A DNA stretch of 29,854 nt from Solirubrobacteraceae bacterium (GCA_036262195.1 DATAJI010000151.1:1-29854); one strand, 5' to 3'. Numbered from the stretch's first letter, positions 2,464 to 27,151 are shown. A program made the numbers and translations. The notes: generated from the sequence alone by a model not told the origin.

Positions 2464-2485
2464 GGTCACAGGATATTCACACGTG
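2464..2485 (+). promoter_or_regulatory. PHO-box-like pair of 11-nt direct repeats
   Basis: GGTCACAGGAT ATTCACACGTG, just upstream of the regulator's -35 and in the opposite orientation to the gene. Resembles the actinobacterial PhoP repeat unit (GTTCACC / GGTCA core). Confidence 0.45.
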
Positions 2486-3262: not shown

Positions 3263-3688
3263 CTACGCCGTTGCCGCGCCGTCCGCGTCTGGCGGCCTCG
3301 TCGTATCGTCGCCAGTCTCGGGCCTCGGCGAGGTGCCGGTGTCAATTTCTCGTGAAAGCTGTGCCTGGAAGCGGTAGCCGAAGCCGGGGTGGGTGTGGAT
3401 GAAGCGGCGGCCCGGAGCGGCTGCCTCCAGCTTTGCGCGCAGCTTGCTCACGTACACGTCGACCGAGCGGTCGCCGGGGCGAAGCTCCCGACCCCAGACG
3501 GTGCGGCACAGCTCGTCACGGCGCACGATCCCGCCGGCGCGGTCGACCATCGCCACGAGCAGCTGGAACTCGCGCATCGAAAGCGTGAGCGCTTCTCCGC
3601 CTGCGAGCACGAGCCCCTCGGATGTTCTGATCTCGAGATCGTCGATGCGGATCGTTCGCGGCTCGTCCCGATGCGCTTGAGCGACCAT
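3263..3688 (-). CDS. Stand-alone OmpR-type winged-helix DNA-binding protein (no receiver domain)
   Basis: LSMREFQLLVAM, RSVDVYVSKLRAKL and IHTHPGFGYRF. Start placed at ATG 3688 (141 aa); the longer ORF extension runs through the promoter/repeat region and has no receiver motifs. Confidence 0.85.
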   Translation of the reverse strand: MVAQAHRDEPRTIRIDDLEIRTSEGLVLAGGEALTLSMREFQLLVAMVDRAGGIVRRDELCRTVWGRELRPGDRSVDVYVSKLRAKLEAAAPGRRFIHTHPGFGYRFQAQLSREIDTGTSPRPETGDDTTRPPDADGAATA

Positions 3689-3720: not shown

Positions 3721-3764
3721 ATCGGGTTAACATGCGGTGACGTAGCGGTGAACAACTCGTGAAA
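3721..3764 (-). promoter_or_regulatory. Array of four 11-nt PHO-box-like direct repeats
   Basis: The minus strand reads TTTCACGAGTT GTTCACCGCTA CGTCACCGCAT GTTAACCCGAT with exact 11-nt periodicity, between the divergent wHTH-phoU and DUF47 genes. Unit 2 contains GTTCACC, the Streptomyces PhoP core. Confidence 0.7.
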
Positions 3765-3804
3765 CAAGGCCAACGCAGTGCGCGGCTCTCTACGCTGAGG
3801 TTCA

Positions 3805-4437: not shown

Positions 4438-7083
4438 TCAGGCCCGCTTCTTGCGGGTCTGTTTGCTCGCGAGCGACTTGCTGCTCAGCGCTGTCGTCGA
4501 GATGACCGTCGGAACACGCGGCTCGGGGATCGAGAGGAGACGGGCGTCGAGCTGCACCCAGCGCTTCGGGCTGAGTCCGAAGTGACCAGCGACGCTGGCG
4601 GTGCTGGCGAGCGCAAGCTGAGCCGGCTCCGGGGTGAAGCTGACGACGATCTGGCCTGCATCGTTCGGGTCGGCGACGCTGCTCGCCGCGCCTTGGATCG
4701 CCTCGGGGCCGGCGATCCGCGACGGCGCGTTGTCACCGGTCAGCATCAGCAGCGCCTTGATCGTCGAGTCAGTGGGCGTGCCCGTGCCAGCTCCCGCCCC
4801 GACGGCGACCGAGTTGACGGCGGTGATCGTGATGCTGTCGGCGTTCGTCGCTGACGGAGCTCCACCGGTGGCGCACTGCGCGCCGCCGATCGTCGGGTCG
4901 AGTCCGTTATCGACAAGGAACTCGACGCTTGCGAGTACGCGACGGTCGACGTCTCCCGCCGCGATTGCGTCTCGCTCGCAGAGCGACATCTTCAAATGCA
5001 CGTTCTCGAGCACGACGCGTTCGAGGTCGATCTGGCTCATCAGGCCTGCCTCGCCGGCGTCGTTGCTCTGCAGGCCGGCTCCGTAGAGCGGCTCGCTCAG
5101 AGGCTTGCGGTGCAGTTCAACCGTCGCGAGCTGAGTCCAAGCGTCGAGGAACGGTCGTGGGTCGATCCCCGCCCGACCGGTGCCCGCCGGACGAAGCTCG
5201 AAGGTCAGATGCGGCTCACGACCGGAGCCGCTTGCCCGGAGGTAGCCGAGGATCGTGCCGGCGAGGACGCGCGACCCGACGCGTAGCGCGCGGGGCTTGA
5301 GCTGGTCGCGCGGCAAGCCCAGGGCGCTCGTGTAGTAGCGATCGACGATCTTGTGCGCTTGCGAGGAGCGCAGCGCCTTTTCGGCTGCCCGGTGGCTCGA
5401 GAGCGGTGGACCGCCGAAGATCGTGACGTCGTCAGTGAGACCTGGGCGGAAGTCGAAGGCAGCGAAGGGCGACGCCGTATCGGCGGTGGCCGACGCCTCG
5501 CTCGTCTCGCTTGGTGTCGCGAGCGCCTGTGCCTCCGCCTCTGCGGCTACGACGCCCGCGATGCCGTCCGACGTCTGCGCGCCGGCGCTTGCCGGCGCAG
5601 TCGGAGCCGGTCCGCTCGCGAGTTGACTGGGGGTCGCCAGCGAGGACGTGGCCGCCGTGTCCATCGGCTTCGGGACTAGGTGATAGGCGGCGACCGAGCC
5701 GAGGTTGCCATAGGTGTAGGCATTGCCGAACGCGTCCCGCACACGGACATAGGTGCCGAGGCGACGGCTGTGCCCGATCGCGACGACCGTCGCGTCTTGT
5801 ACTGCAACAGCAGCGGCGTGCGCTTTGGCGAAGATGTCTACGGCCTGCGAGCCCGCGCCCTCGATGGCGGTCTTCGCCGCCGCGCCGACCGCAGCTGGTG
5901 GCGGGGCCTGGCCCTTGCTCGCCGCAACCGCGTTGACCGCGTGCGGAGCGTCGCTTGAGGACGCGGCACGTTTGTAGCTCGGGTGGTAGCGAAGCTCGAT
6001 CGGGAAAAGGCCCTCGGAGAGCTGGCTGACCGAGTTGACGAGCGTCGCCGGCACGCCGCTCAACAGCTCGGCGCGTAGGAGCACCGACTCGACGTAGGAC
6101 GTCGAATGGTTGTAGGCAAAGATCGCCGCCGGCAGATTCGTCGACGCGCCGGCAGCGCTGAGATAACGGGCCGCCGAGAAGATCGCGTCCGCGGCGTTGT
6201 ACGGGTCCGCCACTCCCGCCCCGGTCGCGTCTAGGCCATAGCTCTGCCACGTGCTGGGAAGGAATTGCATCCATCCAATCGCGCCTGCTGAGGAGACGTT
6301 GAGATCGCTGCCGAAGTTGGTCTCGACCTGGTTGATCGCGGCTAGAACCTCCCAGGGCACGTCGTAGGCGGCTCCGGCCGACTGATAGATCGGCAGGAGG
6401 AACGACGGTACGTCGAAGTGCGCGATGTACCACTCCGGCACGTCGGCTCCGATTGCGGCGGTGACCAGGGGGTCGAACACCGAGCCGGGTAGCACGCCCG
6501 CGAGGGGATTCCTATCCGAGAAAAGGCTCGGCGCCGGCGCGAGCGCGCCGCCGGCAAGGCTGACGTTTGTGCCACCGCTCCCTGTGGAGTTGAGACGGTC
6601 GTTCCCGCTCTCGGGTTGGGTCGTTATCGAGGTCACCACCGGCTCCCCGCCGCTGCCCGTTGCGCCGGTCGGCCCGCTCGAGCCACTCGGCCCGCTCGTG
6701 CCGGTAGGACCGACCGCGCTAGGGGGGGTAGGCGCGGTCGGCGCCGTTGGCGACGTCGATCCACTCGAGGACGTCGAGCCGGTGCTGCCGCTGGCGCCGC
6801 TCGTGCCCGTGCTGCCGCTCGTGCCCGTGCTGCCGCTGGCACCGCTTGCCCCGCTGGCGCCCGTCGTTCCGCTGGCGCCGCTCGCGCCGCTTGTTCCCGT
6901 GGCGCCGCTGGCGCCCGTGCTGCCGCTCGCAGAAGTGCCGCCGGTGGCGCCGCTGCTGCCGGTGGCGCCGGTGCCCGAATCGTCAGCGGCACCGGCGAAC
7001 CCAAGCTGCGGGCCGGCACCGATGGCACTCAGGACCAACACTGCAAGTGCCGTTTGCGGCACTCGGGAGATCTGCATGGCCAC
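4438..7083 (-). CDS. Secreted multidomain lytic transglycosylase (SLT-like domain, Gly-X-X stalk, degenerate M23-like domain)
   Basis: N-terminal signal-like segment; VPWEVLAAINQVETNFG (catalytic Glu), SSAGAIGWMQFLPSTW and DAIFSAARYL; M23-like strands LGTYVRV..YTYGNL and PHLTFE..IDPRPFL. Start is GTG 7083 or ATG 7077. Confidence 0.8.
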   Translation of the reverse strand: MAMQISRVPQTALAVLVLSAIGAGPQLGFAGAADDSGTGATGSSGATGGTSASGSTGASGATGTSGASGASGTTGASGASGASGSTGTSGSTGTSGASGSTGSTSSSGSTSPTAPTAPTPPSAVGPTGTSGPSGSSGPTGATGSGGEPVVTSITTQPESGNDRLNSTGSGGTNVSLAGGALAPAPSLFSDRNPLAGVLPGSVFDPLVTAAIGADVPEWYIAHFDVPSFLLPIYQSAGAAYDVPWEVLAAINQVETNFGSDLNVSSAGAIGWMQFLPSTWQSYGLDATGAGVADPYNAADAIFSAARYLSAAGASTNLPAAIFAYNHSTSYVESVLLRAELLSGVPATLVNSVSQLSEGLFPIELRYHPSYKRAASSSDAPHAVNAVAASKGQAPPPAAVGAAAKTAIEGAGSQAVDIFAKAHAAAVAVQDATVVAIGHSRRLGTYVRVRDAFGNAYTYGNLGSVAAYHLVPKPMDTAATSSLATPSQLASGPAPTAPASAGAQTSDGIAGVVAAEAEAQALATPSETSEASATADTASPFAAFDFRPGLTDDVTIFGGPPLSSHRAAEKALRSSQAHKIVDRYYTSALGLPRDQLKPRALRVGSRVLAGTILGYLRASGSGREPHLTFELRPAGTGRAGIDPRPFLDAWTQLATVELHRKPLSEPLYGAGLQSNDAGEAGLMSQIDLERVVLENVHLKMSLCERDAIAAGDVDRRVLASVEFLVDNGLDPTIGGAQCATGGAPSATNADSITITAVNSVAVGAGAGTGTPTDSTIKALLMLTGDNAPSRIAGPEAIQGAASSVADPNDAGQIVVSFTPEPAQLALASTASVAGHFGLSPKRWVQLDARLLSIPEPRVPTVISTTALSSKSLASKQTRKKRA
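6652..6975 (-). repeat. Imperfect 9-nt periodic coding repeats (Gly-X-X, X = Ala/Ser/Thr)
   Basis: Encodes GATGSSGATGGTSASGSTGASGATGTSGASGASGTTGASGASGASGSTGTSGSTGTSGASGSTGS, then GPTGTSGPSGSSGPTGATGSG. An exact 18-nt tandem duplication lies at 6799-6834. Confidence 0.85.
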
Positions 7084-7192: not shown

Positions 7193-7933
7193 TCAAACGA
7201 GTCCGGCGGCGGCGAGCTCATCGTAGGTAACTGCGCGGCGGCGCTTGACCGAGTGACGGAGCACCCAATCGAGGGTCAGCATGTGGCCGGGGAGCGCGAG
7301 GTCGCTCGGGTGCACGTCGAGACGCAGGGTCCCGCCGGCCAGCAGCGTTGCCGCCCGCAGGACGCCTGGAGAGATCGCGCGGCGAGCGACCGTCCCGCTG
7401 GCGAGTCCGATCGCCGGGGCCGTGCGAGTCGAGGAGGCAACTCCGGTCGCGTGCAGGCCCCACGAGCCGGCCCACCAGCGAAAGCGCGTGTCGAGCATCT
7501 CGCGCAGAGCTGGCGTGTACGCATATGCGGGGGCAACGAAGCCGTGCGGCTCGATCCCTGCGAGCTTTAGCACGCGCCGTCCCGCATCGAGCGCGCGCTC
7601 GGTTTCGGGCCCGTTGAGGCCGATGAACTCGGCGGCCTCGGTGTGCAGTCGCGGTCGCAGCGACTGCGACCAGTGCGTTGGGCGCGACCGGAAGTGCTGG
7701 AAGCCGTGTTGAGCTATTGCATCGCCCGCCCGGCGGCGTTCGTCAAGCCAGATCGCTATCTCGGGGCGGCGATCAGACAGATGGTGCAGATCGCGCGCGG
7801 GGATCACGAGCAGCGTCACGCGATCGATTCCGTGATCGTCAAGCCAGTCGCGAATCAGGGCGCAGCGGTCGAACGTCGCGGGTTCGATGTCGTGGAGCGC
7901 CACGGCGATAGTTGCCGGCCCGTTACGCGGCAT
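7193..7933 (-). CDS. DUF2334 / NodB-like polysaccharide deacetylase family protein
   Basis: IAVALHDIEP, VTLLVIP, QHGFQH, AEF and GFVAPAY. True start is ATG 7933 (MPRNG, 246 aa), overlapping the upstream GT stop by 11 nt. Confidence 0.75.
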   Translation of the reverse strand: MPRNGPATIAVALHDIEPATFDRCALIRDWLDDHGIDRVTLLVIPARDLHHLSDRRPEIAIWLDERRRAGDAIAQHGFQHFRSRPTHWSQSLRPRLHTEAAEFIGLNGPETERALDAGRRVLKLAGIEPHGFVAPAYAYTPALREMLDTRFRWWAGSWGLHATGVASSTRTAPAIGLASGTVARRAISPGVLRAATLLAGGTLRLDVHPSDLALPGHMLTLDWVLRHSVKRRRAVTYDELAAAGLV

Positions 7934-10208
7934 CGCGCATCGTGTCTGGGGTTGCGAGCGCGGTCGCGTAACCGGCGCCGAGACAACCGAGCGCCCGCCC
8001 CCATGTACGTTGGGCGGCACTGCGTACCGCGGCCTGGCCGAGCCGCCGACGCAACAGCGGTGAGGCCGCAAGGGCGAGCATTGCGGACGCGAAGGCCTCG
8101 GGAGTCGGCTCACGCAGCAGGCCGTCGACCTCGCCGCTAAGCAGGTCGCGCGGGCCTCCGGCGTCTGCGGCGAGCACAGCAAGCCCGCTCGCCTGCGCCT
8201 CGAGTACCACCTGACCGAACGTGTCGGTGACGCTCGCGAAGCAGAAGATGTCGGCGCTCGCATATGCGGTCGCGAGATCCTCGCCCGCGAGCCAGCCGAG
8301 CCATGTGGCCCGCTCGCCGAGTCGGTTGCGCAGTCGTGGCGCCTCGGGCCCGTCGCCGGCGATGACGAGGTGGAGGCGAGGATTGCTCGCGTGTGCCTGC
8401 TCGAAAGACTCGGCGAGCAGGTCGATGTTCTTCTCCTGCGCGACCCGTCCCGCGTACAGCACGTTGATCCGATCGCTGAGCAGTCGCTCGTCGCGCCGCT
8501 CGGGGCCGAAGCGGGCCGTATCGACCCCGCGATCCCAGCGGGCGACCCTGCTAGCCGGTATGCCGAGCGCCGCAAGCGCGGCGTCCGCGGCGCTGCTGGG
8601 GGAGAGGATTAGTCGGCACTGGCCGTAAAAGGCGCTGAGAGCCATCGACGCCGCGAGCTCGAGCGCCGCGCTACCCGAGCGCAGACCGGCGTACGTGGCG
8701 AGCTCGGTGTGGTAGGAGCCGACGAGGGGCGTTTCCATTGCGCGCGCTACCAGCACGGCAGCGATTGCGCTCGGCCCCGGTGAGCAGACGTGAATCAGGT
8801 CGTATCGCCCGGCGGTGATCGCCTCGACCGCGGCGGGCAGACTCGGAACCCCCACCTCGATTCCCGCGTAGTGTGGAATCTCGATCTCGGCGACTGAGGT
8901 CAGCCTGCGATCGACGTTCGCGTCGGTGCCGATTACGTCGATCTCGAAACCTTCGACGCCGCGTTCGCGGATCTCCTCGATCGTGCGTGTGACGCCATGC
9001 ATAGCGCCGATCCCGTCGGCAACGATCGCGATCCGCGGCGGTTCGCTGCCCCGGCTGGCGAGCTTCGCGCGCTCGCGCGCTACGAAAGCCGCCGAGGGAC
9101 CGTAAGGGATGGCCGGAAGACAGGCGTCGAACAGCAGCGGTCCGATCGTCGTCAGCTCGCCACGTCCGGCGGCGGCGAACGCGAGCTCGACTGCGCCGCG
9201 CAGACGGCGTTCGTGGGCGCGTCGCGCCCGCCGGTAGAGATCGGCGTGGTTGAAGCTGTCCTGTTGCATGTAGGCGACGAGATCGCGCTCGCAAAGGTCG
9301 CCTAGACCGACGGCCTCGAGCCACGCGTGGAGTAGCGCGCGCGCGTCGGCCGGCCGCAGGTCAGTCTGTGCCCCACCTTCGCGTGCGTCGCCTTCGCGCA
9401 GCAGCCGCTCGGCGATCTCGAGCACCCTCACCGGGTCGAGCTCGGAGACCTTGCCGTCGCGACCGAGAGCGCGCACGGTCAGCGCCATCGCCGCGTGCGC
9501 CCACTTCTCGACGCTGCCCTGCTCGCCGCCGGGAGCGACGCGGCCGGCGCGTAGGTGGTCCAGGAACTCACGCGGGCTGCCGGCCGTCGGCGCCTGGGTG
9601 AAGGTCCGACCGATGTCGACCCCGGCGTGGTCGTCGCTGCCGCCTATCGCGATACCGCCGTGCGTCTCGACGTAGATGCTTGCCGGCAGGTTGAGCTCGG
9701 GCGCGCGCGAACCGTTGCGGGTCTCCCAGACGGCGAAGAGCTCGGCGAGACGCCGGCGGTGGCGGCTGCGCAGCGGGGCGCCCACCGCGTAGAACGGATG
9801 GGCCAGCGCGCTGGCGATCCCATTGGCGTCCAGGTACTCCGCGCAATCCTCGACGTCGCCTCGATGCAGCTGGAGCCACTCGTGATCTGCCGGCGTGATG
9901 TCGAAGCAGAGGACGTGGACCGCTTGCGGCTCACCGCGGAAGTGAGCGGTGAGCTCCTCGGAGACGAACACGTCGTCGCGGTCGGCGATCTCGAGGACGC
10001 CGTCGATCGTGTCGTGATCGGTGATCGTCACGAAATCCATGCCGCGTTGCTTCGCCAGCTGATAGACCTCGTCGGGCGGAGTTGCGCACTCCGGTAGGCC
10101 GAGCGCGCGCTGCACGCGCAGGCGCGAAACCGCCGAAGCTGTCGAGTGGCAATGCAGGTCGACGCGGGCGCCGCCTCGATCTTCTCTGGTCTCTTCTCTG
10201 TTGGTCAT
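7923..10208 (-). CDS. PHP phosphoesterase-domain / GT4 glycosyltransferase fusion
   Basis: N-terminal PHP motifs DLHCHS, TDHD, SEELT, AHPF, ETRNGS and GGSDDH. C-terminal GT4 motifs IAIVAD..HGVTRT, DLIHVCSPGP, SYHTE, WDRGVD..RF, YAGRVAQEKN and DTFGQVVLEAQASG. Start ATG 10208 (alternative TTG 10229). Confidence 0.88.
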   Translation of the reverse strand: MTNREETREDRGGARVDLHCHSTASAVSRLRVQRALGLPECATPPDEVYQLAKQRGMDFVTITDHDTIDGVLEIADRDDVFVSEELTAHFRGEPQAVHVLCFDITPADHEWLQLHRGDVEDCAEYLDANGIASALAHPFYAVGAPLRSRHRRRLAELFAVWETRNGSRAPELNLPASIYVETHGGIAIGGSDDHAGVDIGRTFTQAPTAGSPREFLDHLRAGRVAPGGEQGSVEKWAHAAMALTVRALGRDGKVSELDPVRVLEIAERLLREGDAREGGAQTDLRPADARALLHAWLEAVGLGDLCERDLVAYMQQDSFNHADLYRRARRAHERRLRGAVELAFAAAGRGELTTIGPLLFDACLPAIPYGPSAAFVARERAKLASRGSEPPRIAIVADGIGAMHGVTRTIEEIRERGVEGFEIDVIGTDANVDRRLTSVAEIEIPHYAGIEVGVPSLPAAVEAITAGRYDLIHVCSPGPSAIAAVLVARAMETPLVGSYHTELATYAGLRSGSAALELAASMALSAFYGQCRLILSPSSAADAALAALGIPASRVARWDRGVDTARFGPERRDERLLSDRINVLYAGRVAQEKNIDLLAESFEQAHASNPRLHLVIAGDGPEAPRLRNRLGERATWLGWLAGEDLATAYASADIFCFASVTDTFGQVVLEAQASGLAVLAADAGGPRDLLSGEVDGLLREPTPEAFASAMLALAASPLLRRRLGQAAVRSAAQRTWGRALGCLGAGYATALATPDTMRDAA

Positions 10209-10237
10209 ATGGTCATGATTCGCCTGCAAACCTCAGC

Positions 10238-10259
10238 TTTCTGTGACCAGACGGTGAAA
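10238..10259 (-). promoter_or_regulatory. PHO-box-like pair of 11-nt direct repeats upstream of the PHP-GT4 gene
   Basis: Minus strand TTTCACCGTCT GGTCACAGAAA, followed in register by GCTGAGGTTTG; same orientation as the gene, 30 nt upstream of the ATG. Confidence 0.55.
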
Positions 10260-10508: not shown

Positions 10509-11774
10509 ATGGCGCTACTCGAGACCGATCGCCTCGAGCGAGCTCGCGAGCAGACGCTCGCCTTGGTGGCTGGCGTCGCCGACAGCGATCTGGAGCGCGC
10601 GCATTCTTTGCTGATGAGCCCGTTGGTCTGGGATCTCGGCCACATTGGCGCGTTCGAGGATCTTTGGCTCGCGCATCGTCGCGGGGGCCTACCCCTGTTG
10701 CGTCCTGAGCTGCTCGGTGTCTATGACGCCTTCGAGACGCCGCGCTCGCAGCGCGGCGAGCTCGCCTACCTCCGTCGCTCCGAGGCCGAGCGGTTTCTGG
10801 GCGATGTTCGCGAGCGTGTCCGCTCACTCGCGCTCGGAGCTGACGATCCGTTGGTCGAGCTCGTGCTGCGCCACGAACGCCAGCACGCGGAGACAATGCT
10901 CCAGACGCTCGCCCTCGCTGCGATAGGGGGTTGGCAGCCTCCGGTCGCTGCCGACTCGAGCTCGTACGGCTTGGGGGTGACCCGCAGCGGTCTCGATCTG
11001 ATCGAGGTGCCAGGGACGAACATGCTGCTCGGCGCCGGCGCTGGCGGCTTTGCCTACGATAATGAGCGCTCCCAACACCACGTAGAGGTTGAGTCTTTTC
11101 GGATCGGCCGCGTGCCTGTTACAAACGGCGACTGGCTCGAGTTCATCGACGATCGCGGCTACAGCCGCCGCGACTGGTGGACGGCAGCTGGTTGGAGCTG
11201 GCGCAGCGAGGAGCAGGTGGAGCGGCCGCTGCAGTGGCTATCAGAGGGCGCCGAGCGCCGGCTCGAAGGAGTCGAACTGCTTGATCTGTCCGCACCGGTC
11301 TTGCATGTCTCCTGTCATGAGGCGGACGCGTTTGCGCGCTCGCGCGGCTTGCGCCTGCCAACCGAGGTCGAATGGGAGACGGCCGCGAGTTGGGACGCCG
11401 ACGCCGGGGTAAAGCGCGCCTGGCCGTGGGGCGATGAGGCACCCGAATCCCGCCACGCCAACCTCATCGAGTCCGGCGTGTTCGCGCCACTGGCGGCCGG
11501 GGCGCTCCCCGACGGCGCCGCGCCGTGCGGCGCGCTTGGCATGATCGGCGACGTCTGGGAGTGGACCGCGAGCCGCTTCGGCGCATACCCGGGCTTTCGC
11601 GCGTACCCCTACCGCGAGTACTCGGAGGTTTTCTTCGGCTCCGAGTACCGCGTGCTCCGCGGCGGCTCCTTCGCAGCGAGCGCGGATGTCGTCACGCCGA
11701 CGTTCCGCAACTGGGACCTGCCGCAGCGACGTCAGATCTTCGCCGGCCTCCGAGTCGCGGCGGATCTGACGTGA
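10509..11774 (+). CDS. egtB: Ergothioneine sulfoxide synthase EgtB (DinB_2 + FGE-like domains)
   Basis: MSPLVWDLGHIG, YDAFETPRSQR, HERQHAETMLQT (Fe-binding His), DVWEWT, YPYREYSEVFF and FRNWDLPQRRQIFAG; coupled to egtD. TAGGAT -10 at 10492-10497. Confidence 0.9.
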   Translation: MALLETDRLERAREQTLALVAGVADSDLERAHSLLMSPLVWDLGHIGAFEDLWLAHRRGGLPLLRPELLGVYDAFETPRSQRGELAYLRRSEAERFLGDVRERVRSLALGADDPLVELVLRHERQHAETMLQTLALAAIGGWQPPVAADSSSYGLGVTRSGLDLIEVPGTNMLLGAGAGGFAYDNERSQHHVEVESFRIGRVPVTNGDWLEFIDDRGYSRRDWWTAAGWSWRSEEQVERPLQWLSEGAERRLEGVELLDLSAPVLHVSCHEADAFARSRGLRLPTEVEWETAASWDADAGVKRAWPWGDEAPESRHANLIESGVFAPLAAGALPDGAAPCGALGMIGDVWEWTASRFGAYPGFRAYPYREYSEVFFGSEYRVLRGGSFAASADVVTPTFRNWDLPQRRQIFAGLRVAADLT

Positions 11775-12769
11775 GCCCGCGGACGCCGATCGCAGCGCCG
11801 CAGATCACGATCGACCACGCGTTCGAGGACTCCGCAACGCGAACGCTCCCCGAGGACGCGCTCGATGGATTGACGCAGCCGTTTAAGGAGCTTCCGCCGA
11901 AGCACTTCTACGATGCACGCGGCGCGGCGCTGTTCGAGCAGATCTGTGAGCTTCCCGAGTATTACCCGACGCGCACTGAGCGCGCGATCCTCGAGCGAGC
12001 GGCCGACGCGATCGTCGCCAGCACGGGCGCCGGGGAGCTTGTCGAGTTGGGGTCCGGGAGCGCGACCAAGACGCGCGTGCTGCTCGACGCGATGGCGCGC
12101 GCCGGAACGCTCGAGCGGTACGTCGCGATCGACGTCACCGAAACCGCGGTGCGCGAGAGCGGCATGCAGCTGATCGAGGAATACCCGGGCCTTTCGGTCC
12201 ACGGGCTGATTGGAGATTTCGAGCGCCACCTCGACCGGCTTCCGCCGCCTCGCGCGCGGCGGCTCGTCGTGTTCCTCGGCGGCACGATCGGGAACTTCCG
12301 CCCCGGCGCTCGGCGTCGCTTCCTGCGCGCCATCTGTGCGCTGCTCGAAGACGACGACCGCCTCCTTCTCGGGACCGACCTCGTCAAGGATCGAGCCACG
12401 CTCATTGCGGCCTACGACGACCCGGCTGGGATCACTGCGCTTTTCAATCGCAACATGCTGCACGTCCTCAACCGTGAGCTCGGTGGCGATTTCGCGCCCG
12501 ATCAGTTCGACCACGTTGCCCTGTTCGACGATCGCAACGAGTGGATCGAGATGCGTTTGCGGGCGCGCTCGCGTCAGACCGTCACGCTTCCGGCGATTGG
12601 CCTCCAGGTGGACTTCGCGACCGGCGAGGAGCTGCGCACCGAGATCAGCGCGAAGTTCACCCGTAGCCGCCTCGACGCTGATCTCGCCGCCGCTGGACTC
12701 GCGCTCGACGGCTGGTACACGGATCCGCGCGACTGGTTCGCCGTTTCGCTCGCGCGCCGCGCGCGTTAG
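11771..12769 (+). CDS. egtD: L-histidine N-alpha-methyltransferase EgtD
   Basis: KELPPKHFYDARG..LF..I..LPEYYPTRTE, ELGSGSATKT, FLGGTIGNF, AYDDPAGITALFN and TEISAKF. The GTG start overlaps the egtB stop (GTGA). Confidence 0.93.
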   Translation: MSPRTPIAAPQITIDHAFEDSATRTLPEDALDGLTQPFKELPPKHFYDARGAALFEQICELPEYYPTRTERAILERAADAIVASTGAGELVELGSGSATKTRVLLDAMARAGTLERYVAIDVTETAVRESGMQLIEEYPGLSVHGLIGDFERHLDRLPPPRARRLVVFLGGTIGNFRPGARRRFLRAICALLEDDDRLLLGTDLVKDRATLIAAYDDPAGITALFNRNMLHVLNRELGGDFAPDQFDHVALFDDRNEWIEMRLRARSRQTVTLPAIGLQVDFATGEELRTEISAKFTRSRLDADLAAAGLALDGWYTDPRDWFAVSLARRAR

Positions 12770-13866: not shown

Positions 13867-15516
13867 TCAGAAGAGCAGCGCGTGGAGGAAGCGCTGATTC
13901 GCGCGACCGACGATCGTCGTGTTCGGGTGCAGGCCGATGGCGCGCTCCACGGTGGTCGAGTACGGCATCGCCACCATGAACATGTATACGCCGAGGACAA
14001 TCGCGGCGATTCTTATGCGCCGCCCGCGAGCGAGTGCCGCAAACGGGAGCAGCCAGATCAGGTACCAGGGAAGCTCCCAGCTCAGCGTCAACAGCAACGC
14101 GAGAATCGCAACGCCGCAAGGCAGCATCCAATCGTGGCTGCGCCAGGCCCAGATCGTGCAAACCACGACGACCGCCGCGAGCGCGATCGTAAAGGCCAGC
14201 CGGACCCCGGGCGACGCGCCGCCGTCGCCGATGAGGTAGCCGACGACGTTGGGAACGCTGCCCGGTATCACGAGCGCGTCCTGCTGGCTCAAGTCGGGCA
14301 CGTTCAGACCAAACGCGGCAATCGAGGCTGCGGCAAGGCCGGCCGCACCGATCAAGAAGCCGGTCGCCAGTCGCAGCCTGCGGGCGCTGCCTGCCAAAAC
14401 GATCGGGATTAGAACTACCGCGGACGCCTTGATCGCGACTGCGCCGATGAGCAAGATGCCGCCGCTCACCGCCCACCACCAGCCCGGCTGGCCTGGGCCG
14501 AGCGGACGGGGCGCGCCATCGATCCACGAGAGAGCTCGCCGCCAGGCGGAGCCGAGCTTCGCGACGGCGCCGCCACTCGCGGCCACCGGGCCCGGCGGCC
14601 CGGCGCGCGCCGAACGCACGCGCGCCTGGATCAGCAGGTACATGCCAAGCGTGACCAAGAAGATCATCAGGAAGTCGCTGTGGTCGGCGCCGAGTCCCCA
14701 GACGAGCACGATCGGGTTCAAGCCGACGAACAGTGCCGCACTGAGGCGGTGGCGCCCGAGCAGGCCGGCCGACCCCCAGACCAGCCAGACGCTACCCAGA
14801 CTGGTCAGTAGCAACGCGGTCTTCAGGATCCAGTAAGAGCCGGCGATGCCCAATGGCACGACCGCCATCGTGATCAGCGTCAGCAGCGGGCCGTACGGGC
14901 TCTCGAGCCCGTGCCAGTTGCTGAGCGAGAAGACCGGGTCGTTGTGTGGCTCGAGGGCCGGGATCGTCGTGTAGGGGTTGAGGTGGTAGAGGACCTCCAT
15001 CCGGCCGTAGTTGAGGTAGTTGAAGATGTCGGTCAACGGCAACGGTGGCGAGAGAAAGAAGATCACCTGAAGCACGACGACGGCGCTCAAGGCAAACGCC
15101 GGCCGGACGCGCGGGGCGCAGATCAGCACGGCGATGTAGGCCAGGTACATCGTCGCGATGCCGGCTGTGAAAACCGCTTCGAGCGTGGCGGAGCTGAAGC
15201 TGACCCAGCTTGTCAGCGCCGCCAGCGGGCCGGCCAGCCAGGTTGGGTAGTCACCGGGGCGAGCGGTCGGCGAGAGGTAGTCACGGGGGACTTGCGAAGC
15301 CGCGAGGGAGACGATGATCAGGCTGATCAGGATCATCGCCGTCAGCGCCGCGGACGACGCGGCTGCGGCGGCGCCGGACTTCACCGCGTCACGGCGATCC
15401 GGGGCCAGCCACTCGCCGCCCAGTGGGGGCGCAGGACGGCCGCCACGCGCACGGGGCAGACGCTGGGTGCCCGCGCTCACGTCAGCAAGCACCGTCCCGG
15501 AGCCGTCAGCCGTCAT
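13867..15516 (-). CDS. GT-C polyprenol-phosphate-sugar-dependent glycosyltransferase, MptA/MptB (alpha-1,6-mannosyltransferase)-like
   Basis: Many TM segments; TDIFNYLNYGR, HLNPY, W..LESPYGPL, LNPIVLVWG, H.DFLM, AIKASA and PWYLIWLLP. Start ATG 15516 or 15528. Confidence 0.7.
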   Translation of the reverse strand: MTADGSGTVLADVSAGTQRLPRARGGRPAPPLGGEWLAPDRRDAVKSGAAAAASSAALTAMILISLIIVSLAASQVPRDYLSPTARPGDYPTWLAGPLAALTSWVSFSSATLEAVFTAGIATMYLAYIAVLICAPRVRPAFALSAVVVLQVIFFLSPPLPLTDIFNYLNYGRMEVLYHLNPYTTIPALEPHNDPVFSLSNWHGLESPYGPLLTLITMAVVPLGIAGSYWILKTALLLTSLGSVWLVWGSAGLLGRHRLSAALFVGLNPIVLVWGLGADHSDFLMIFLVTLGMYLLIQARVRSARAGPPGPVAASGGAVAKLGSAWRRALSWIDGAPRPLGPGQPGWWWAVSGGILLIGAVAIKASAVVLIPIVLAGSARRLRLATGFLIGAAGLAAASIAAFGLNVPDLSQQDALVIPGSVPNVVGYLIGDGGASPGVRLAFTIALAAVVVVCTIWAWRSHDWMLPCGVAILALLLTLSWELPWYLIWLLPFAALARGRRIRIAAIVLGVYMFMVAMPYSTTVERAIGLHPNTTIVGRANQRFLHALLF

Positions 15517-15630
15517 ATCGCCTTGCATTACGACTTGGGGCGCTATCTGGCCGAGCTGGCGCGGGTCAACGTGCGCCGAGAATAGCGCCCGACAGGGCTG
15601 CTTTTGTCATTTCCCGCAGCGAACGCGCGG

Positions 15631-23489: not shown

Positions 23490-24431
23490 CTAAGTGCCTG
23501 CCTTTTTCACCGCGTGGCCGCCGAACTGGTTGCGCAACGCGGCGAGCACGCGGGCCGCATAGTCGCCGTCCTCGCGCGAGTAGAAGCGGCTGAACAGGGC
23601 CGCGCTGAGCGCCGGCGTTGGGACGTCTCTGTCGATCGCGTCCTGGAGCGTCCAGCGTCCTTCGCCCGAGTCATCGACCCAGCCCTCCAGCTCCGCGAGG
23701 TCGTTGCCGTCGGCATCAAACGCGCGCGCAGCCAGTTCACAGAGCCAGGAGCGGACGACCGATGCCTGGTTCCAAAGGTGGGCGATCTTCGCGTTGTCGA
23801 GCTCGTATTCCGAGGCGTGAAACAACTCGAACCCCTCGGCGTAGGCCTGCATGATCCCGTACTCCACCGCGTTGTGGACCATCTTCACGTAGTGCCCGGC
23901 ACCGCTCGGACCGAAGTGGTGCCAGCCGTACTTGCCGATCGAGTGCAGGCTGTCCTCGCTCGTCGGCGGCGCAAGCACGTCGAGGATCGGCGCCAGCCGC
24001 CGGACCGCCTTCGCCGGACCGCCGACCATCATGCAGTAACCGTTCTCAAGACCCCACACGCCGCCACTGGTGCCGACGTCGATGTAGTGGATCTTGCTCT
24101 TGCGCAGCGCTGCGGAGCGGAGCTTGTCGTCGGTCCAGCGCGAGTTGCCGCCGTCGACGATCGCGTCATCCGCCGACAGCAGCTTGGCGAGCTGATCGAC
24201 CGTCGATTGCGTGGCCTCGCCAGCGGGGACCATGATCCAGACGGTGCGGGGGGCTGACAGCTGCTTGACGAGGTCCTTGAGCGTCGACGCGCCGCTCGCG
24301 CCGCTCTTCTCGGCCCGCGCCACCGCTTTCGGGTCGAAGTCGAACGCCACGACCTCGTGCTCGGAGTCCCGCCGGATTCGCGTGACCATGTTGCCGCCCA
24401 TCTTGCCGAGGCCGACTAAGCCGATCTGCAT
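23490..24431 (-). CDS. gnd: 6-phosphogluconate dehydrogenase, decarboxylating, short (YqeC/Gnd-related) type
   Basis: GLGKMG, DGGNS, DVGTSGGVWG, GAGHYVKMVHNAVEYG, DSGEGRWT and LRNQFGGH; 313 aa. Confidence 0.93.
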   Translation of the reverse strand: MQIGLVGLGKMGGNMVTRIRRDSEHEVVAFDFDPKAVARAEKSGASGASTLKDLVKQLSAPRTVWIMVPAGEATQSTVDQLAKLLSADDAIVDGGNSRWTDDKLRSAALRKSKIHYIDVGTSGGVWGLENGYCMMVGGPAKAVRRLAPILDVLAPPTSEDSLHSIGKYGWHHFGPSGAGHYVKMVHNAVEYGIMQAYAEGFELFHASEYELDNAKIAHLWNQASVVRSWLCELAARAFDADGNDLAELEGWVDDSGEGRWTLQDAIDRDVPTPALSAALFSRFYSREDGDYAARVLAALRNQFGGHAVKKAGT

Positions 24432-27151
24432 CAGAGAGTCTCCTTGATCTGGTTGTGGAGCTTGCGCAGAGCACTAGCGGGATCGCCTTCGAGGCGAACG
24501 ATCTCGGCCGGTAACTTGTGCGCGCGGAGCGTCTCGAGGTCCCCCAGGGCCTGCGCGTTCTTGAGCGTGCGGAAGCTGAACGGCTCGCCTGGTATCTCGA
24601 CGTCCTCGTCGGAATCGCAGATCAGCGACAGGAAGCGACCGATCGGCGCTCCGCCCTTGTGGAGCTGGCCGGTCGAGTGCAGAAAGCGCGGGCCGTAGCC
24701 GAAAGTCGTCGCGAGCTTCGTGCGCTCCATCAGCGTTGCGCGCAGCTCGGCGACAGCTTCGTCGAACTCGACCGAGGGTGTGACGTAGGCCATCAGCGCG
24801 ACGTAGTCACCAGGCTTGCCCCCGCCGAGCAGCGCTGTGATGGCGTCCGCGCTGGCAACCGGCAGCTCCGGCAGCGCGCCTTCCGCCAGCACGCGTTTGG
24901 TCGCGGCTTTGGCCTCGGCGACGTTCGGCTGGTCGAACGGGTTGATCTCGAGCACCCAGCCGGCGACCGCGGTAGCGAACTCGAAACTGAAGAACAGTCG
25001 TCCGAGGTCCTCGGCGGCGCTGACGGTCAGCGTCAGCGTCGGGTGTCCGGAGTCGGCGAGGGCGGCGAGCCGCTCATCAGCCTGCGCGTCGGGCTGCTCC
25101 TCATCGCGCAGCTGGAGGAAGACGCGGTCCAAGCCGTAGGCGTCCGGAGCCAGCAGCGGCTCCTCGGCGACTGGCAGGATGCCGCGGCCGTGCTTGCCGG
25201 TGCTCTCTGCGACGAGCTGCTCGACCCAGAGCCCGAAGCTCGCGACCGCGTCGCCGACGATGAACGTCAGCTTGTCGCGGCCGTGGCGTGCGAGCTCGCC
25301 AAGTGCGAGGCCTAGCCAGAGGCTGGGGTTTGAGGCACTCGAGTCGAAGTGGGCGCAGGGCTGCTCGGCGATCACGGCGCGTTCGAGCAGCGCGTGGACG
25401 GGCGCGCCGATCAGCGCCGCGGGAACGAGTCCGAACAGCGACAGCGCCGAGTAGCGCCCGCCGATATTGGGGTCGTTCTCGAAGCAGGCCCTGAAGCCGT
25501 GCTCCCTCGCCAGCTCAACGAGCGCGCTCCCCGGGTCCGTGACCGCGATGAAATGCTTGCCGTCGGGGACGAGCGCGTGGAAGTGCGCAAACAGCGACAG
25601 GGTCTCGATCGTGCCGCCGGATTTCGTCGACACGACGAACAGCGTGCGCTCGAGATCGATCTGGCGTTGAACATCGAGGATCGCGTCCGGATCGGTCGAG
25701 TCGAGCACGTGGAGGTCGAGCGCATCGTTCGGCGCCCCGAAGGTCCGCCAGAGCACCTCGGGGGCGAGGCTCGAGCCGCCCATGCCGAGCAGCACGGCGT
25801 CCTTGAAGCCGTCGGCCGCGACGCCGCGGGCGAATTCGACGAGCTCGTCGGCGCGTTCGAGCATCGAATCGGAGATTGTCAGCCAGCCGAGCCGGTCGCC
25901 GATCTCCGGCACGCCCGGGCCGCCCCAGAGCGACTCGTCCTTGGCCCAGAGGCGGCGTGCGACGTCTGCTAGCCCGGCCTGCTTGACGCGCTGCGCGATC
26001 CCGCCAGCGAGCTCGCTCGGGATCGAGGCGGCGATCGCGTCGGGGCGTCCCGTGAGCACCGCTTGGCGCGCATTTTCGATTCCGGCGAGCAGCTCGTTCA
26101 TCGGCGTGACGAAGGCAGCGATGCCCTGCTCCAGCAACGTCTTCGTGACGTCGCTCATATCGATTCCCGCCTCTGCGAGCGCGTCGAGGGCAGGACCAGG
26201 GTCGCGTTCGGCGCTGCCGGGCTCGATCTGCCCGCGCTCGGCGACGGCGAGGAGGGTCTTCATCGGCATCGTGTTGACCGTGTAAGGCGCGACGAGATTG
26301 TCGACGTACATCGTCTCGGAGTAGGCCGGATTCTTCGTCCCGGTCGATGCCCAGAGCGGCCGCTGATAGAGCGCGCCGGCCTCGCGCAGGACGGCAAAAC
26401 GGTCGCTGTGGAAGATCTCCTTGAAGCGCTGGTAGGCGGCGCGCGCATTGGCGATCGCCGCCGTAGCGGCGAGGTCGCTGCGTCCGAGCGCCTCCAGTCG
26501 CTTGTCGACCTCCGTGTCGACGCGCGAGACGAAGAAGCTAGCGACCGAGTGCACGTCGAGTGGGAGTCCCTCGGCGTGGCGGCGCTCGAGCCCGCGGATG
26601 TAAGCCTCGGCGATCTCGGTGTACTGCTCGACGGCGAACAACAGCGTGACGTTGACGTTGATGCCTTCGTAGATCGCCTGCTCGATTGCCGGCACGCCGG
26701 CGTCGGTCCCGGGGATCTTGATCATCACGTTTGGGCGGTCGAGCCGCTGCCAGTAGTCGCGCGCCTGGGCAAGGGTGCGCTCGGTGTCGTGAGCGAGGTC
26801 CGGCGCGACCTCGAAGGAGACAAAGCCGTCGCCCTCTTCGTCGTAGACCGGTCGCAGGATGTCGGCGGCGTCCACGACGTCGGCGACCGCGATGCGCTCG
26901 TAGAGCGCCACCGCGCCGAGCCCTTCGCCCGCCAGCTCATGCAGGGTCTCGTCGTAGTCCGTTGAGCCGAGGATCGCCTGCTCGAAGATCGCCGGGTTGG
27001 ACGTGACGCCTTTCAGCGAGCACTCATCGCGCAGCCGACCCAGCTCGCCACTAGTCAGGAGACCACGACGGATCTGATCCAGCCAGGGGGCGGTTCCGGC
27101 GGCGGCGAGTGCCGCGAGGTTCGCGTTTTGGGTGTGGGGGAGGCTTGCCAT
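24431..27151 (-). CDS. tal-pgi: Bifunctional transaldolase / glucose-6-phosphate isomerase
   Basis: N-half: WLDQIRR, GVTSNPAIF, NVMIKIPGT, SVASFFVSRVD and RPLWASTGTK. C-half: LGMGGSSL, STKSGGTIET, GGRYSALS, EQLVAESTGK, PFDQPNV and GPRFLHSTGQLHKGG. Confidence 0.95.
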   Translation of the reverse strand: MASLPHTQNANLAALAAAGTAPWLDQIRRGLLTSGELGRLRDECSLKGVTSNPAIFEQAILGSTDYDETLHELAGEGLGAVALYERIAVADVVDAADILRPVYDEEGDGFVSFEVAPDLAHDTERTLAQARDYWQRLDRPNVMIKIPGTDAGVPAIEQAIYEGINVNVTLLFAVEQYTEIAEAYIRGLERRHAEGLPLDVHSVASFFVSRVDTEVDKRLEALGRSDLAATAAIANARAAYQRFKEIFHSDRFAVLREAGALYQRPLWASTGTKNPAYSETMYVDNLVAPYTVNTMPMKTLLAVAERGQIEPGSAERDPGPALDALAEAGIDMSDVTKTLLEQGIAAFVTPMNELLAGIENARQAVLTGRPDAIAASIPSELAGGIAQRVKQAGLADVARRLWAKDESLWGGPGVPEIGDRLGWLTISDSMLERADELVEFARGVAADGFKDAVLLGMGGSSLAPEVLWRTFGAPNDALDLHVLDSTDPDAILDVQRQIDLERTLFVVSTKSGGTIETLSLFAHFHALVPDGKHFIAVTDPGSALVELAREHGFRACFENDPNIGGRYSALSLFGLVPAALIGAPVHALLERAVIAEQPCAHFDSSASNPSLWLGLALGELARHGRDKLTFIVGDAVASFGLWVEQLVAESTGKHGRGILPVAEEPLLAPDAYGLDRVFLQLRDEEQPDAQADERLAALADSGHPTLTLTVSAAEDLGRLFFSFEFATAVAGWVLEINPFDQPNVAEAKAATKRVLAEGALPELPVASADAITALLGGGKPGDYVALMAYVTPSVEFDEAVAELRATLMERTKLATTFGYGPRFLHSTGQLHKGGAPIGRFLSLICDSDEDVEIPGEPFSFRTLKNAQALGDLETLRAHKLPAEIVRLEGDPASALRKLHNQIKETL

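Follow-up and report, generated by a model that had tools for sequence, protein, structure and literature searches.

We analyzed a 29,854-nucleotide (nt) stretch of DNA from a Solirubrobacteraceae bacterium (GCA_036262195.1, DATAJI010000151.1; hereafter, the window), which is contig C151 of a 2.17-Mb, 86% complete metagenome-assembled genome (MAG) of the order Solirubrobacterales, class Thermoleophilia. The window encodes a 761-amino-acid (aa) protein in which a PHP metal-phosphoesterase domain and a helical bundle are fused to a glycosyltransferase family 4 (GT4) domain, and this gene overlaps a second one for a DUF2334 protein. Our best-supported conclusion is that the two-gene operon very probably belongs to the Pho regulon. 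As judged from its sequence relatives, the fusion family is probably a Pho-controlled glycolipid synthase of the GpgSD or PlcP-Agt type, with an uncharacterized phosphoesterase fused to it. We tentatively favor a reading in which the operon is a Pho-controlled membrane-lipid module that would transfer an N-acetylglucosamine (GlcNAc)-type sugar to a glycerolipid and deacetylate it, with the PHP domain supplying diacylglycerol (DAG) and inorganic phosphate (Pi).

Predicted phosphate control of the operon

Actinobacterial PHO boxes consist of at least two 11-nt direct-repeat units with a G/T-TCAC core that are shared with pstS, and the region upstream of the fusion has this composition (Table 1). 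The initial annotation had pointed to phoU-type TCAC repeats before the fusion, and the same motif indeed occurs at both sites, at pstS, and in most related species. Within the window, the exact pair TCAC-N7-TCAC occurs four times where 0.57 occurrences are expected, a count that no shuffle attained, and all four sites (10243-10257, 3737-3762 with three exact units, and 2466-2480) lie at pho genes or at the fusion. The four-unit array has DUF47 on one side and, on the other, a receiver-less OmpR-type gene located ahead of phoU.

Promoters were compared over 80 species-level Solirubrobacterales loci (L056-L135), in which the exact pair was sought within 260 nt upstream of the fusion. Of the 80 species, 61 have it on the gene strand and none on the opposite strand, against a background of 0.006 per 270 nt. 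Across the order these promoters share a fixed four-unit architecture, TCAC-N7-TCAC-N7-(TTxCC)-N7-TCAC, of which the source lineage retains just two units, and the repeats of orthologous promoters are kept where the flanking sequence diverges. The pstS gene of the source genome has four units with an 11-nt period, and those of relatives G035, G071, G107, and G119 have four or five TCAC/TAAC units with the same period. A 44-nt position weight matrix trained solely on the fusion promoters of other species found only two matches above 12 bits in the intergenic regions of the source genome, namely, the phoU-locus array (the top match) and pstS. The fusion's own two-unit site scores below 12 bits, and the matrix is too promoter-specific for listing a whole regulon. 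Genome-wide, TCAC-N7-TCAC is not enriched, as its 52 matches (14 intergenic) are like those of other spacings that are not multiples of three. The significance of the pair lies in its location and cross-species conservation and not in bulk counts.

Gene order gives a similar picture. In 25 of the 80 Solirubrobacterales relatives, a co-oriented phoU is found no more than 3 kb upstream of the fusion. Annotated neighbors confirm the order pstB-phoU-ppx-fusion-ppk in L062 (ppk1) and ppx alone in L061; L072 and L084 have neighboring open reading frames (ORFs) of sizes that fit this order, and another Thermoleophilia family has the order pstB-phoU-...-fusion. The source lineage is arranged as fusion-DUF2334-SLT, DUF47, winged helix-turn-helix (wHTH)-phoU-response regulator-...-ppk, with one SLT/M23 gene standing between the operon and DUF47, wHTH-phoU, the response regulator, CHAD-CHAD, and ppk. 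The conserved PHO box, the pstS motif, and the pst/phoU/ppx/ppk clusters strongly support the Pho control proposed in the initial annotation.

The start region of the fusion is also conserved. In the four closest GTDB relatives (L056-L059), AATCT(T/G) is followed by 6 nt and the ATG, with the same spacing from the first TCAC as in the window, 49 nt (58 in L058). An AATC(A/T)T hexamer 6 nt before the start codon suggests that the fusion mRNA may be leaderless. The start of the 761-aa protein matches that of homologs of 760 to 764 aa, and the 11-nt overlap between the two genes, which recurs identically among the called genes of relatives L031, L032, and L033 (89% and 73% identity), implies that they are translationally coupled. 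ORF coordinates, together with domain and fold searches, thus confirmed the fusion and the overlap as they had been described beforehand.

Table 1. Coordinates of the operon, its domains, and the repeat sites within the window
Feature	Position	Strand	Details
DUF2334/GpgD-like predicted de-N-acetylase gene	7193..7933	-	246 aa, no signal peptide
PHP-helical-GT4 fusion gene	7923..10208	-	ATG at 10208, 761 aa
11-nt overlap	7923..7933	-	fusion stop TAA 7925-7923; DUF2334 start ATG 7933-7931
GT4 (GT-B) domain (aa 392-752), MgtA/SQD2/GpgS-like glycerolipid clade	7953..9035	-	Pfam, NCBIfam, Foldseek
Family-specific helical bundle (aa 233-384)	9057..9512	-	AlphaFold2 model
PHP metal-phosphoesterase barrel (aa 14-232)	9513..10169	-	AlphaFold2 model, Foldseek matches, metal-ligand columns
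-10-like hexamer AATCAT	10215..10220	-	6 nt upstream of fusion ATG
PHO box, two 11-nt direct-repeat units TTTCACCGTCT, GGTCACAGAAA	10238..10259	-	29-50 nt upstream of fusion ATG
Four-unit PHO array, phoU locus (comparison site)	3722..3765	-	three exact TCAC units and one TAAC unit
Two-unit TCAC site (comparison)	2466..2480	+	between phoU and OmpR-type response-regulator gene, upstream of the latter

Several other observations concern the regulon and the surrounding genes. The source genome (G000) encodes a 658-aa PF04185 phosphoesterase of the phospholipase C/acid phosphatase (PLC/AcpA) family (contig C401:10428-12401, minus strand; locus L143:1429-3402). A TCAC-N7-TCAC pair lies 84 nt upstream of its gene, which makes it a likely further member of the regulon, possibly an extracellular or lipid phosphate scavenger. 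The remaining intergenic pairs, near an alpha/beta hydrolase, a 5'-3' exonuclease, and NucS, look like chance. PhoD was not found in the 86% complete MAG. The window also encodes an OmpR-type winged-helix protein without a receiver domain (3263-3685, minus strand), whose gene comes right after the PHO array and before phoU, and in relatives a receiver-less OmpR-type gene lies immediately upstream of pstS.

The gene that follows DUF2334 on the same strand after 110 nt (4438-7083, minus strand) encodes an 881-aa protein with matches to SLT lytic transglycosylase, M23 peptidase, and collagen-like repeats, and its position is kept in close relatives. Divergent from the fusion promoter are egtB-like (DinB_2 plus FGE-sulfatase) and egtD-like (histidine methyltransferase) ergothioneine genes (10509-12769, plus strand), which in relative L033 are replaced by a gene for a CpsB/CapC-type PHP phosphatase. 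A 553-aa ORF (13867-15528, minus strand) has no Pfam match in our scan. Relatives have an ortholog annotated in the MptA_B family (GT-C mannosyltransferase), a hint that the source clade may make lipomannan-like glycolipids. Finally, one 906-aa ORF (24431-27151, minus strand) combines transaldolase and phosphoglucose isomerase domains within a pentose-phosphate operon, tkt-tal/pgi-gnd-zwf-opcA-pgl.

Relatives of the three catalytic domains

The GT4 domain has the clearest relatives. Both Pfam halves score above threshold (Glyco_transf_4, residues 408-566, 61.8 bits; Glycos_transf_1, residues 571-727, 101.4 bits), and the donor-site GR..EK and E-x7-E region of GT4 enzymes is represented by the near-invariant residues G587, R588, E592, K593, and E670. 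The motifs SYHTE, WDRGVD..RF.P, and DTFGQVVLEA, which were listed in the initial annotation, are all present. A Foldseek search of Swiss-Prot with this domain placed MgtA (Corynebacterium glutamicum, Mycobacterium smegmatis, and Mycobacterium tuberculosis) and Arabidopsis SQD2 at the top, ahead of PimC, MshA, BshA, and PIG-A, at 28-33% identity, E values of about 1e-24, template-modeling (TM) scores by hit of 0.65-0.84, and root mean square deviations of 2.6-3.3 over approximately 370 residues. The best NCBIfam match is NF053787, GpgS, which leads by 46 bits and aligns fusion residues 431-739 with model positions 46-348 of 361. Its score of 120 bits falls short of the equivalog cut-off of 480. 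GpgS is also the best model for three divergent fusion variants and an extra GT4 gene (116-136 bits). SQD2 uses DAG as its acceptor. MgtA mannosylates glucuronic acid (GlcA)-DAG (PMC2480597). The nearest characterized relatives of the domain (MgtA, SQD2, and GpgS) thus all act on membrane glycerolipids, and the earlier proposal of a lipid-type GT4 is strongly supported by this ranking. We are fairly confident, on these family relationships, that the acceptor is a glycerolipid.

The DUF2334 protein scores 77.3 bits against PF10096 (threshold, 26), and its sole NCBIfam match, nearly full length, is NF053788, the GlcNAc-phosphatidylglycerol deacetylase GpgD, at 92.9 bits versus an equivalog cut-off of 280. 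A sequence search of the PDB with DUF2334 gave no meaningful match. The residues H14-D15, H76/H80, and D206/H208 (H-D, HxxxH, and DxH) are invariant down to 34% identity, as expected if the protein is a metal-dependent deacetylase. In 23 of the 80 Solirubrobacterales loci, the gene next to the fusion on its downstream side is DUF2334. A second family, and also G071, has the order fusion-GT4-DUF2334, and in a third family and in G032 the place of DUF2334 after the fusion is taken by a PIG-L family deacetylase, to which it is unrelated. This displacement of one deacetylase fold by another is our main argument that the donor carries an N-acetylhexosamine (HexNAc) that is later deacetylated, and a sequence of HexNAc transfer followed by deacetylation appears likely from it. 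The suggestion that DUF2334 modifies the headgroup is therefore strongly supported. Of the two-gene system proposed at the same time, the coupled operon stands in this lineage, but the deacetylase is adjacent in only 23 of 80 loci and is an optional accessory, not a fixed part of the system.

Related loci carry further genes next to the fusion. The PIG-L genes (L046:8071-8961, L048, L049, L023-L030, and L044:10406-10726) have BshB1 as their best NCBIfam match (51 bits), and near these fusion loci are a trehalose-phosphatase-like gene and a conserved 717-aa protein without a family match. In a further family (L045:10318-10956 and L047:7303-7926), the fusion is followed by a small alpha/beta (Ser_hydrolase-type) hydrolase, with 46% identity between the two, which could be a lipid esterase. 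In G032, the fusion is preceded at 700 nt by a flippase-like LPG_synthase_TM/TIGR00374 gene (GpgF/HexF family), and the source genome has four to five LPG_synthase_TM genes elsewhere.

The N-terminal module is recognized chiefly by its fold. AlphaFold2 (AF2) models are of similar quality for residues 1-400 (pLDDT, 88.5; pTM, 0.87) and for the full-length fusion (pLDDT, 88.7; pTM, 0.82). In Foldseek, the barrel matched the PHP domain of RNase AM, TM0559, Cv1693, and BAD_1165 (7ug9, 2anu, 2yb1, and 3o0f; E = 1.7e-7 to 1e-5; 15-19% identity). Pfam PHP and PHP_C (residues 32-224) score below their thresholds (PF02811, 17.2 versus 26.4 bits; PF13263, 18.1 versus 21.3 bits), and a profile search of PDB sequences reached solved PHP proteins at only E = 0.009. 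Because the sequence profile barely detects them, we consider the domain a divergent subfamily; it has the barrel fold and the conserved His/Asp/Glu ligands of the superfamily, with a Pfam score under the gathering value. NCBIfam gave weak matches of the fusion to 3',5'-nucleoside bisphosphate phosphatase and CehA/McbA, and an ESM Atlas feature search with the N-terminal part returned unnamed PHP clusters only. An alignment of 32 homologs (24-89% identity) shows little or no variation at D17, H19, H21, D64, H65, E85, H98, H137, D192, D193, and H194, from which we take the phosphoesterase site to be under purifying selection. The Asp of the canonical PHP 'SD' motif is Ala26 in the source clade and Asp in 6 of the 32 homologs, so the site is not textbook-complete. 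The metal-binding PHP domain had been called intact, a description that holds for the fold and the near-invariant ligands but not for this Asp.

Fusions of the PHP-helical module to GT4 occur in Actinomycetota, Thermodesulfobacteriota, Kiritimatiellota, and Acidobacteriota (TM, 0.66-0.89), and the module stands alone in Verrucomicrobiota. The cross-phylum fusion means that the link between phosphoesterase and transferase is old and specific, and it argues that both activities serve one pathway. Within the class, the fusion is present in 51 of 121 sampled Thermoleophilia genomes, and a scan of GTDB species representatives yielded at least 599 fusion loci. Its family annotation is generic only, and our literature search turned up no publication in which a PHP domain and GT4 are named together. 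To our knowledge, this widespread family has no experimentally studied member.

A proposed lipid pathway and its alternatives

In the pathway that we favor, Pi limitation would lead an OmpR/PhoP-type response regulator to activate the operon promoter. The GT4 domain would then move an N-acetylhexosamine, probably GlcNAc from uridine diphosphate (UDP)-GlcNAc, onto a glycerolipid on the inner (cytoplasmic) side of the membrane, and DUF2334 would strip the acetyl group to leave a cationic amino-sugar (glucosaminyl) headgroup. The PHP domain would hydrolyze a phosphate ester within the same pathway, most likely by releasing Pi and the DAG acceptor from phosphatidic acid or a phospholipid. We prefer this form of the last step because it fits Pho control best. 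The net effect would be the replacement of phospholipid by a phosphorus-free GlcN(Ac)-DAG. Phosphate-starved mycobacteria also swap phospholipids for glycolipids (PMC12722247). That the PHP domain supplies DAG is possible, by analogy, though we would not presume it. A stronger version is doubtful. In it, lipid activity would appear for the first time in the PHP superfamily: the domain, acting as a phosphatidate phosphatase or as a phospholipase C, would pass DAG directly to GT4 within a one-enzyme phospholipid-to-aminoglycolipid converter. The same doubt applies to the products that such a converter would make during Pi starvation in soil Thermoleophilia and several other phyla, namely GlcNAc-DAG and, via the deacetylase, glucosaminyl-DAG.

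Several points weigh against this pathway. We know of no PHP-family enzyme that acts on lipids, and the structural neighbors of the PHP domain are nucleotide and RNA phosphoesterases. As a stand-in for anionic phospholipids, a cationic glucosamine (GlcN) lipid would be unusual. GpgSD, the two-gene system that comes closest as a precedent, glycosylates phosphatidylglycerol (PG), which keeps the phosphorus and needs no phosphoesterase. The identity of the substrate cannot be transferred from GpgS and GpgD, because the two proteins score far under the equivalog cut-offs of these models (120 of 480 and 93 of 280). One family of the class has a fusion promoter without a PHO box. Most close relatives with the fusion lack the deacetylase, and DUF2334 was not found in 6 of 7 same-family genomes that carry the fusion. 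In the window, no flippase gene is adjacent to the fusion or DUF2334. Deacetylase, flippase, and pho genes are absent beside three distant fusion homologs (P0248, P0259, and P0244), so these couplings are lineage-specific.

The main alternative is a GpgSD-type aminophospholipid, in which GT4 would add GlcNAc to the headgroup of PG or phosphatidylinositol (PI) and DUF2334 would convert it to GlcN-PG or GlcN-PI. The PHP domain would strip the terminal phosphate of a phosphatidylglycerol phosphate (PGP) or phosphatidylinositol phosphate (PIP) precursor, before or after glycosylation, and the purpose would be to adjust membrane charge as anionic phospholipid falls rather than to save phosphorus. 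We think this unlikely on balance, even though GpgS and GpgD are the best-scoring curated models for the two proteins (PMC12713373) and the phosphatase would have a clear task if the precursor were phosphorylated. It also draws on the PIG-L deacetylases, named for GlcNAc-PI, that substitute for DUF2334 in other families, on PIG-A and MshA, which recognize inositol or inositol phosphate, among the GT4 structural matches, and on the PG, PI, phosphatidylinositol mannosides, and 'unidentified aminophospholipid' of Solirubrobacter (PMC10722151). However, the curated scores are far under the cut-offs, the nearest reviewed proteins, MgtA and SQD2, take DAG-based acceptors, dedicated PGP phosphatases normally already exist, and Pho control with ppx/ppk placement fits phosphorus saving better than a phospholipid product. 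A less probable account keeps the amino-sugar lipid made by GT4 and the deacetylase and assigns to PHP the role of a nucleotide phosphatase for GT4-released UDP, 3'-phosphoadenosine 5'-phosphate (pAp), or another nucleotide, which would relieve product inhibition and return Pi during starvation. Every Leloir glycosyltransferase yields a nucleoside diphosphate (NDP), RNase AM and the pAp/nucleotide phosphatase Cv1693 come closest among solved PHP structures, and the weak NCBIfam matches are to 3',5'-nucleoside bisphosphate phosphatase and to CehA/McbA. Identity to RNase AM/Cv1693-type enzymes is only 15-19%, though, with the PDB-sequence profile at E = 0.009. Free cytoplasmic NDP kinases and NDPases would make a dedicated fused domain hard to justify, and the conservation of the helical bundle, like the recurrence of the fusion across phyla, points to a substrate that is specific and shared.

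Two further accounts dispense with the lipid and are both highly improbable, the second marginally the more so. In one, a soluble synthase-phosphatase pathway following the logic of sucrose phosphate, trehalose phosphate, or MshA/MshA2 would yield a GlcN-glycoside, for example, a compatible solute or thiol precursor: GT4 would glycosylate a phosphorylated small molecule, PHP would dephosphorylate the product, and the deacetylase would finish it. Glycosyltransferase-phosphatase fusions are common in solute pathways, GT4 with a PIG-L deacetylase is the pattern of BshA/BshB and MshA/MshB, and the top PDB sequence matches include MshA, sucrose-phosphate synthases, and GlgM, all with phosphorylated acceptors. 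The MshA and BshA models, however, score only 43-87 bits against cut-offs of 462 and 274, the whole-domain structural and sequence neighbors of GT4 are lipid transferases, a flippase-like gene neighbors the fusion in one genome (G032), and there is no obvious rationale for placing a solute pathway under Pho induction. A specific mycothiol role (MshA, the missing MshA2 phosphatase, and MshB) was considered and excluded, given an MshA score of 66 of 462 bits and no MshC above the cut-off in any of the 121 genomes of the class, where only CysRS-level matches were seen; from this count, Thermoleophilia appear to lack mycothiol. The other account is a wall-polymer switch. Under PhoP, Bacillus exchanges teichoic acid for teichuronic acid, and GT4 would similarly build a phosphate-free glycopolymer while PHP trimmed a phosphodiester or pyrophosphate linkage and DUF2334 deacetylated the polymer, a function that the downstream SLT/M23 wall hydrolase would share. 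In the source genome and in close relatives, that large SLT/M23 protein does come after DUF2334, with both on one strand, the fusion has a weak TuaC match (46-66 bits), DUF2334 belongs to a polysaccharide-deacetylase-like fold family, and uppP adjoins the fusion in one family. Yet the SLT linkage is limited to the source lineage and G071, neither the fusion nor DUF2334 has a signal peptide or transmembrane segment, the neighborhood contains no polymerase, flippase (Wzx), or priming transferase, and the nearest characterized relatives are lipid transferases.

Thermoleophilia (Solirubrobacterales) are among the most abundant soil actinobacteria and have hardly been cultured. The fusion appears to be one of the few non-transport genes that are clearly and conservedly wired into the Solirubrobacterales Pho regulon. 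If the product is indeed a phosphorus-free or amino-sugar lipid, the fusion would name the enzyme behind lipid remodeling under Pi starvation in a whole bacterial class, the newly discovered GpgSD aminolipid chemistry would extend to Gram-positive soil bacteria, and the PHP superfamily would gain a new kind of substrate. Soil metagenomes and metatranscriptomes could then also be read for phosphorus stress with this gene as the marker. The question is directly testable, since a cultured organism, Conexibacter sp. CPCC 205762, carries the fusion, with its locus on NZ_JAUTDN010000006.1.

Comparison with known systems

The gpgSDF genes of Pseudomonas aeruginosa, described in 2025, encode a GlcNAc-PG synthase, a GlcNAc-PG deacetylase, and a putative flippase (PMC12713373). 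Like GpgS and GpgD, which are the best-scoring curated models for the two proteins, the operon in the window pairs a cytoplasmic GT4 with a COG3233/DUF2334 deacetylase, and a GpgF-family gene is found near the fusion in one relative (G032). The two proteins reach only one quarter to one third of the equivalog cut-off scores, however, and the flippase is not adjacent in the window. GpgS has neither a PHP nor a helical module, and GpgSDF is not known to be Pho-controlled. A functional analog of gpgSDF is hexSDF of Clostridioides difficile, which encodes a HexNAc-glycolipid synthase, a deacetylase that yields the amino sugar, and an MprF-like flippase (PMC10128005). The fusion-GT4-DUF2334 order of some relatives could likewise build a HexN-Hex-lipid. 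HexS carries the annotation of a monogalactosyldiacylglycerol synthase and HexD that of a polysaccharide deacetylase, and HexSDF responds to the HexRK two-component system (daptomycin/bacitracin resistance) rather than to Pho (PMC10128005).

Individual domains can be compared in the same way. The PHP domain shares the distorted TIM barrel and the His/Asp/Glu metal-ligand set of COG0613-type phosphoesterases (RNase AM/YciV, Cv1693, and TM0559). It differs from them in its low identity (15-19%), the extra helical bundle, the fusion to GT4, the replaced 'SD' Asp in the source clade, and its sub-gathering Pfam PHP score, and their known substrates are nucleotides and RNA. The GT4 domain resembles MgtA (Rv0557/NCgl0452) and plant SQD2, the nearest reviewed proteins, both of which act on DAG-based glycerolipids; the products of SQD2 substitute for phospholipids under phosphorus starvation (PMC3586718). 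In contrast to the HexNAc donor proposed here, MgtA and SQD2 use guanosine diphosphate (GDP)-mannose and UDP-sulfoquinovose or UDP-GlcA, and neither has a PHP module or a deacetylase partner.

SAR11, roseobacters, rhizobia, and Pseudomonas have the PlcP-Agt operon for lipid renovation (PMC4796936, PMC8528852), which carries a Pho box (PMC4796936). PlcP is a calcineurin-like metallophosphoesterase, a type to which the PHP domain of the fusion does not belong, and PlcP and Agt are separate proteins. Agt uses UDP-glucose or UDP-GlcA and has no deacetylase partner. In both cases, a phosphoesterase is paired with a GT4 behind a sequence that has the features of a Pho box. PlcP-Agt first frees DAG and Pi and then glycosylates the DAG, and with a putative action of the PHP domain on lipid, the fusion would be the fused, non-homologous counterpart of that pair (PMC4796936).

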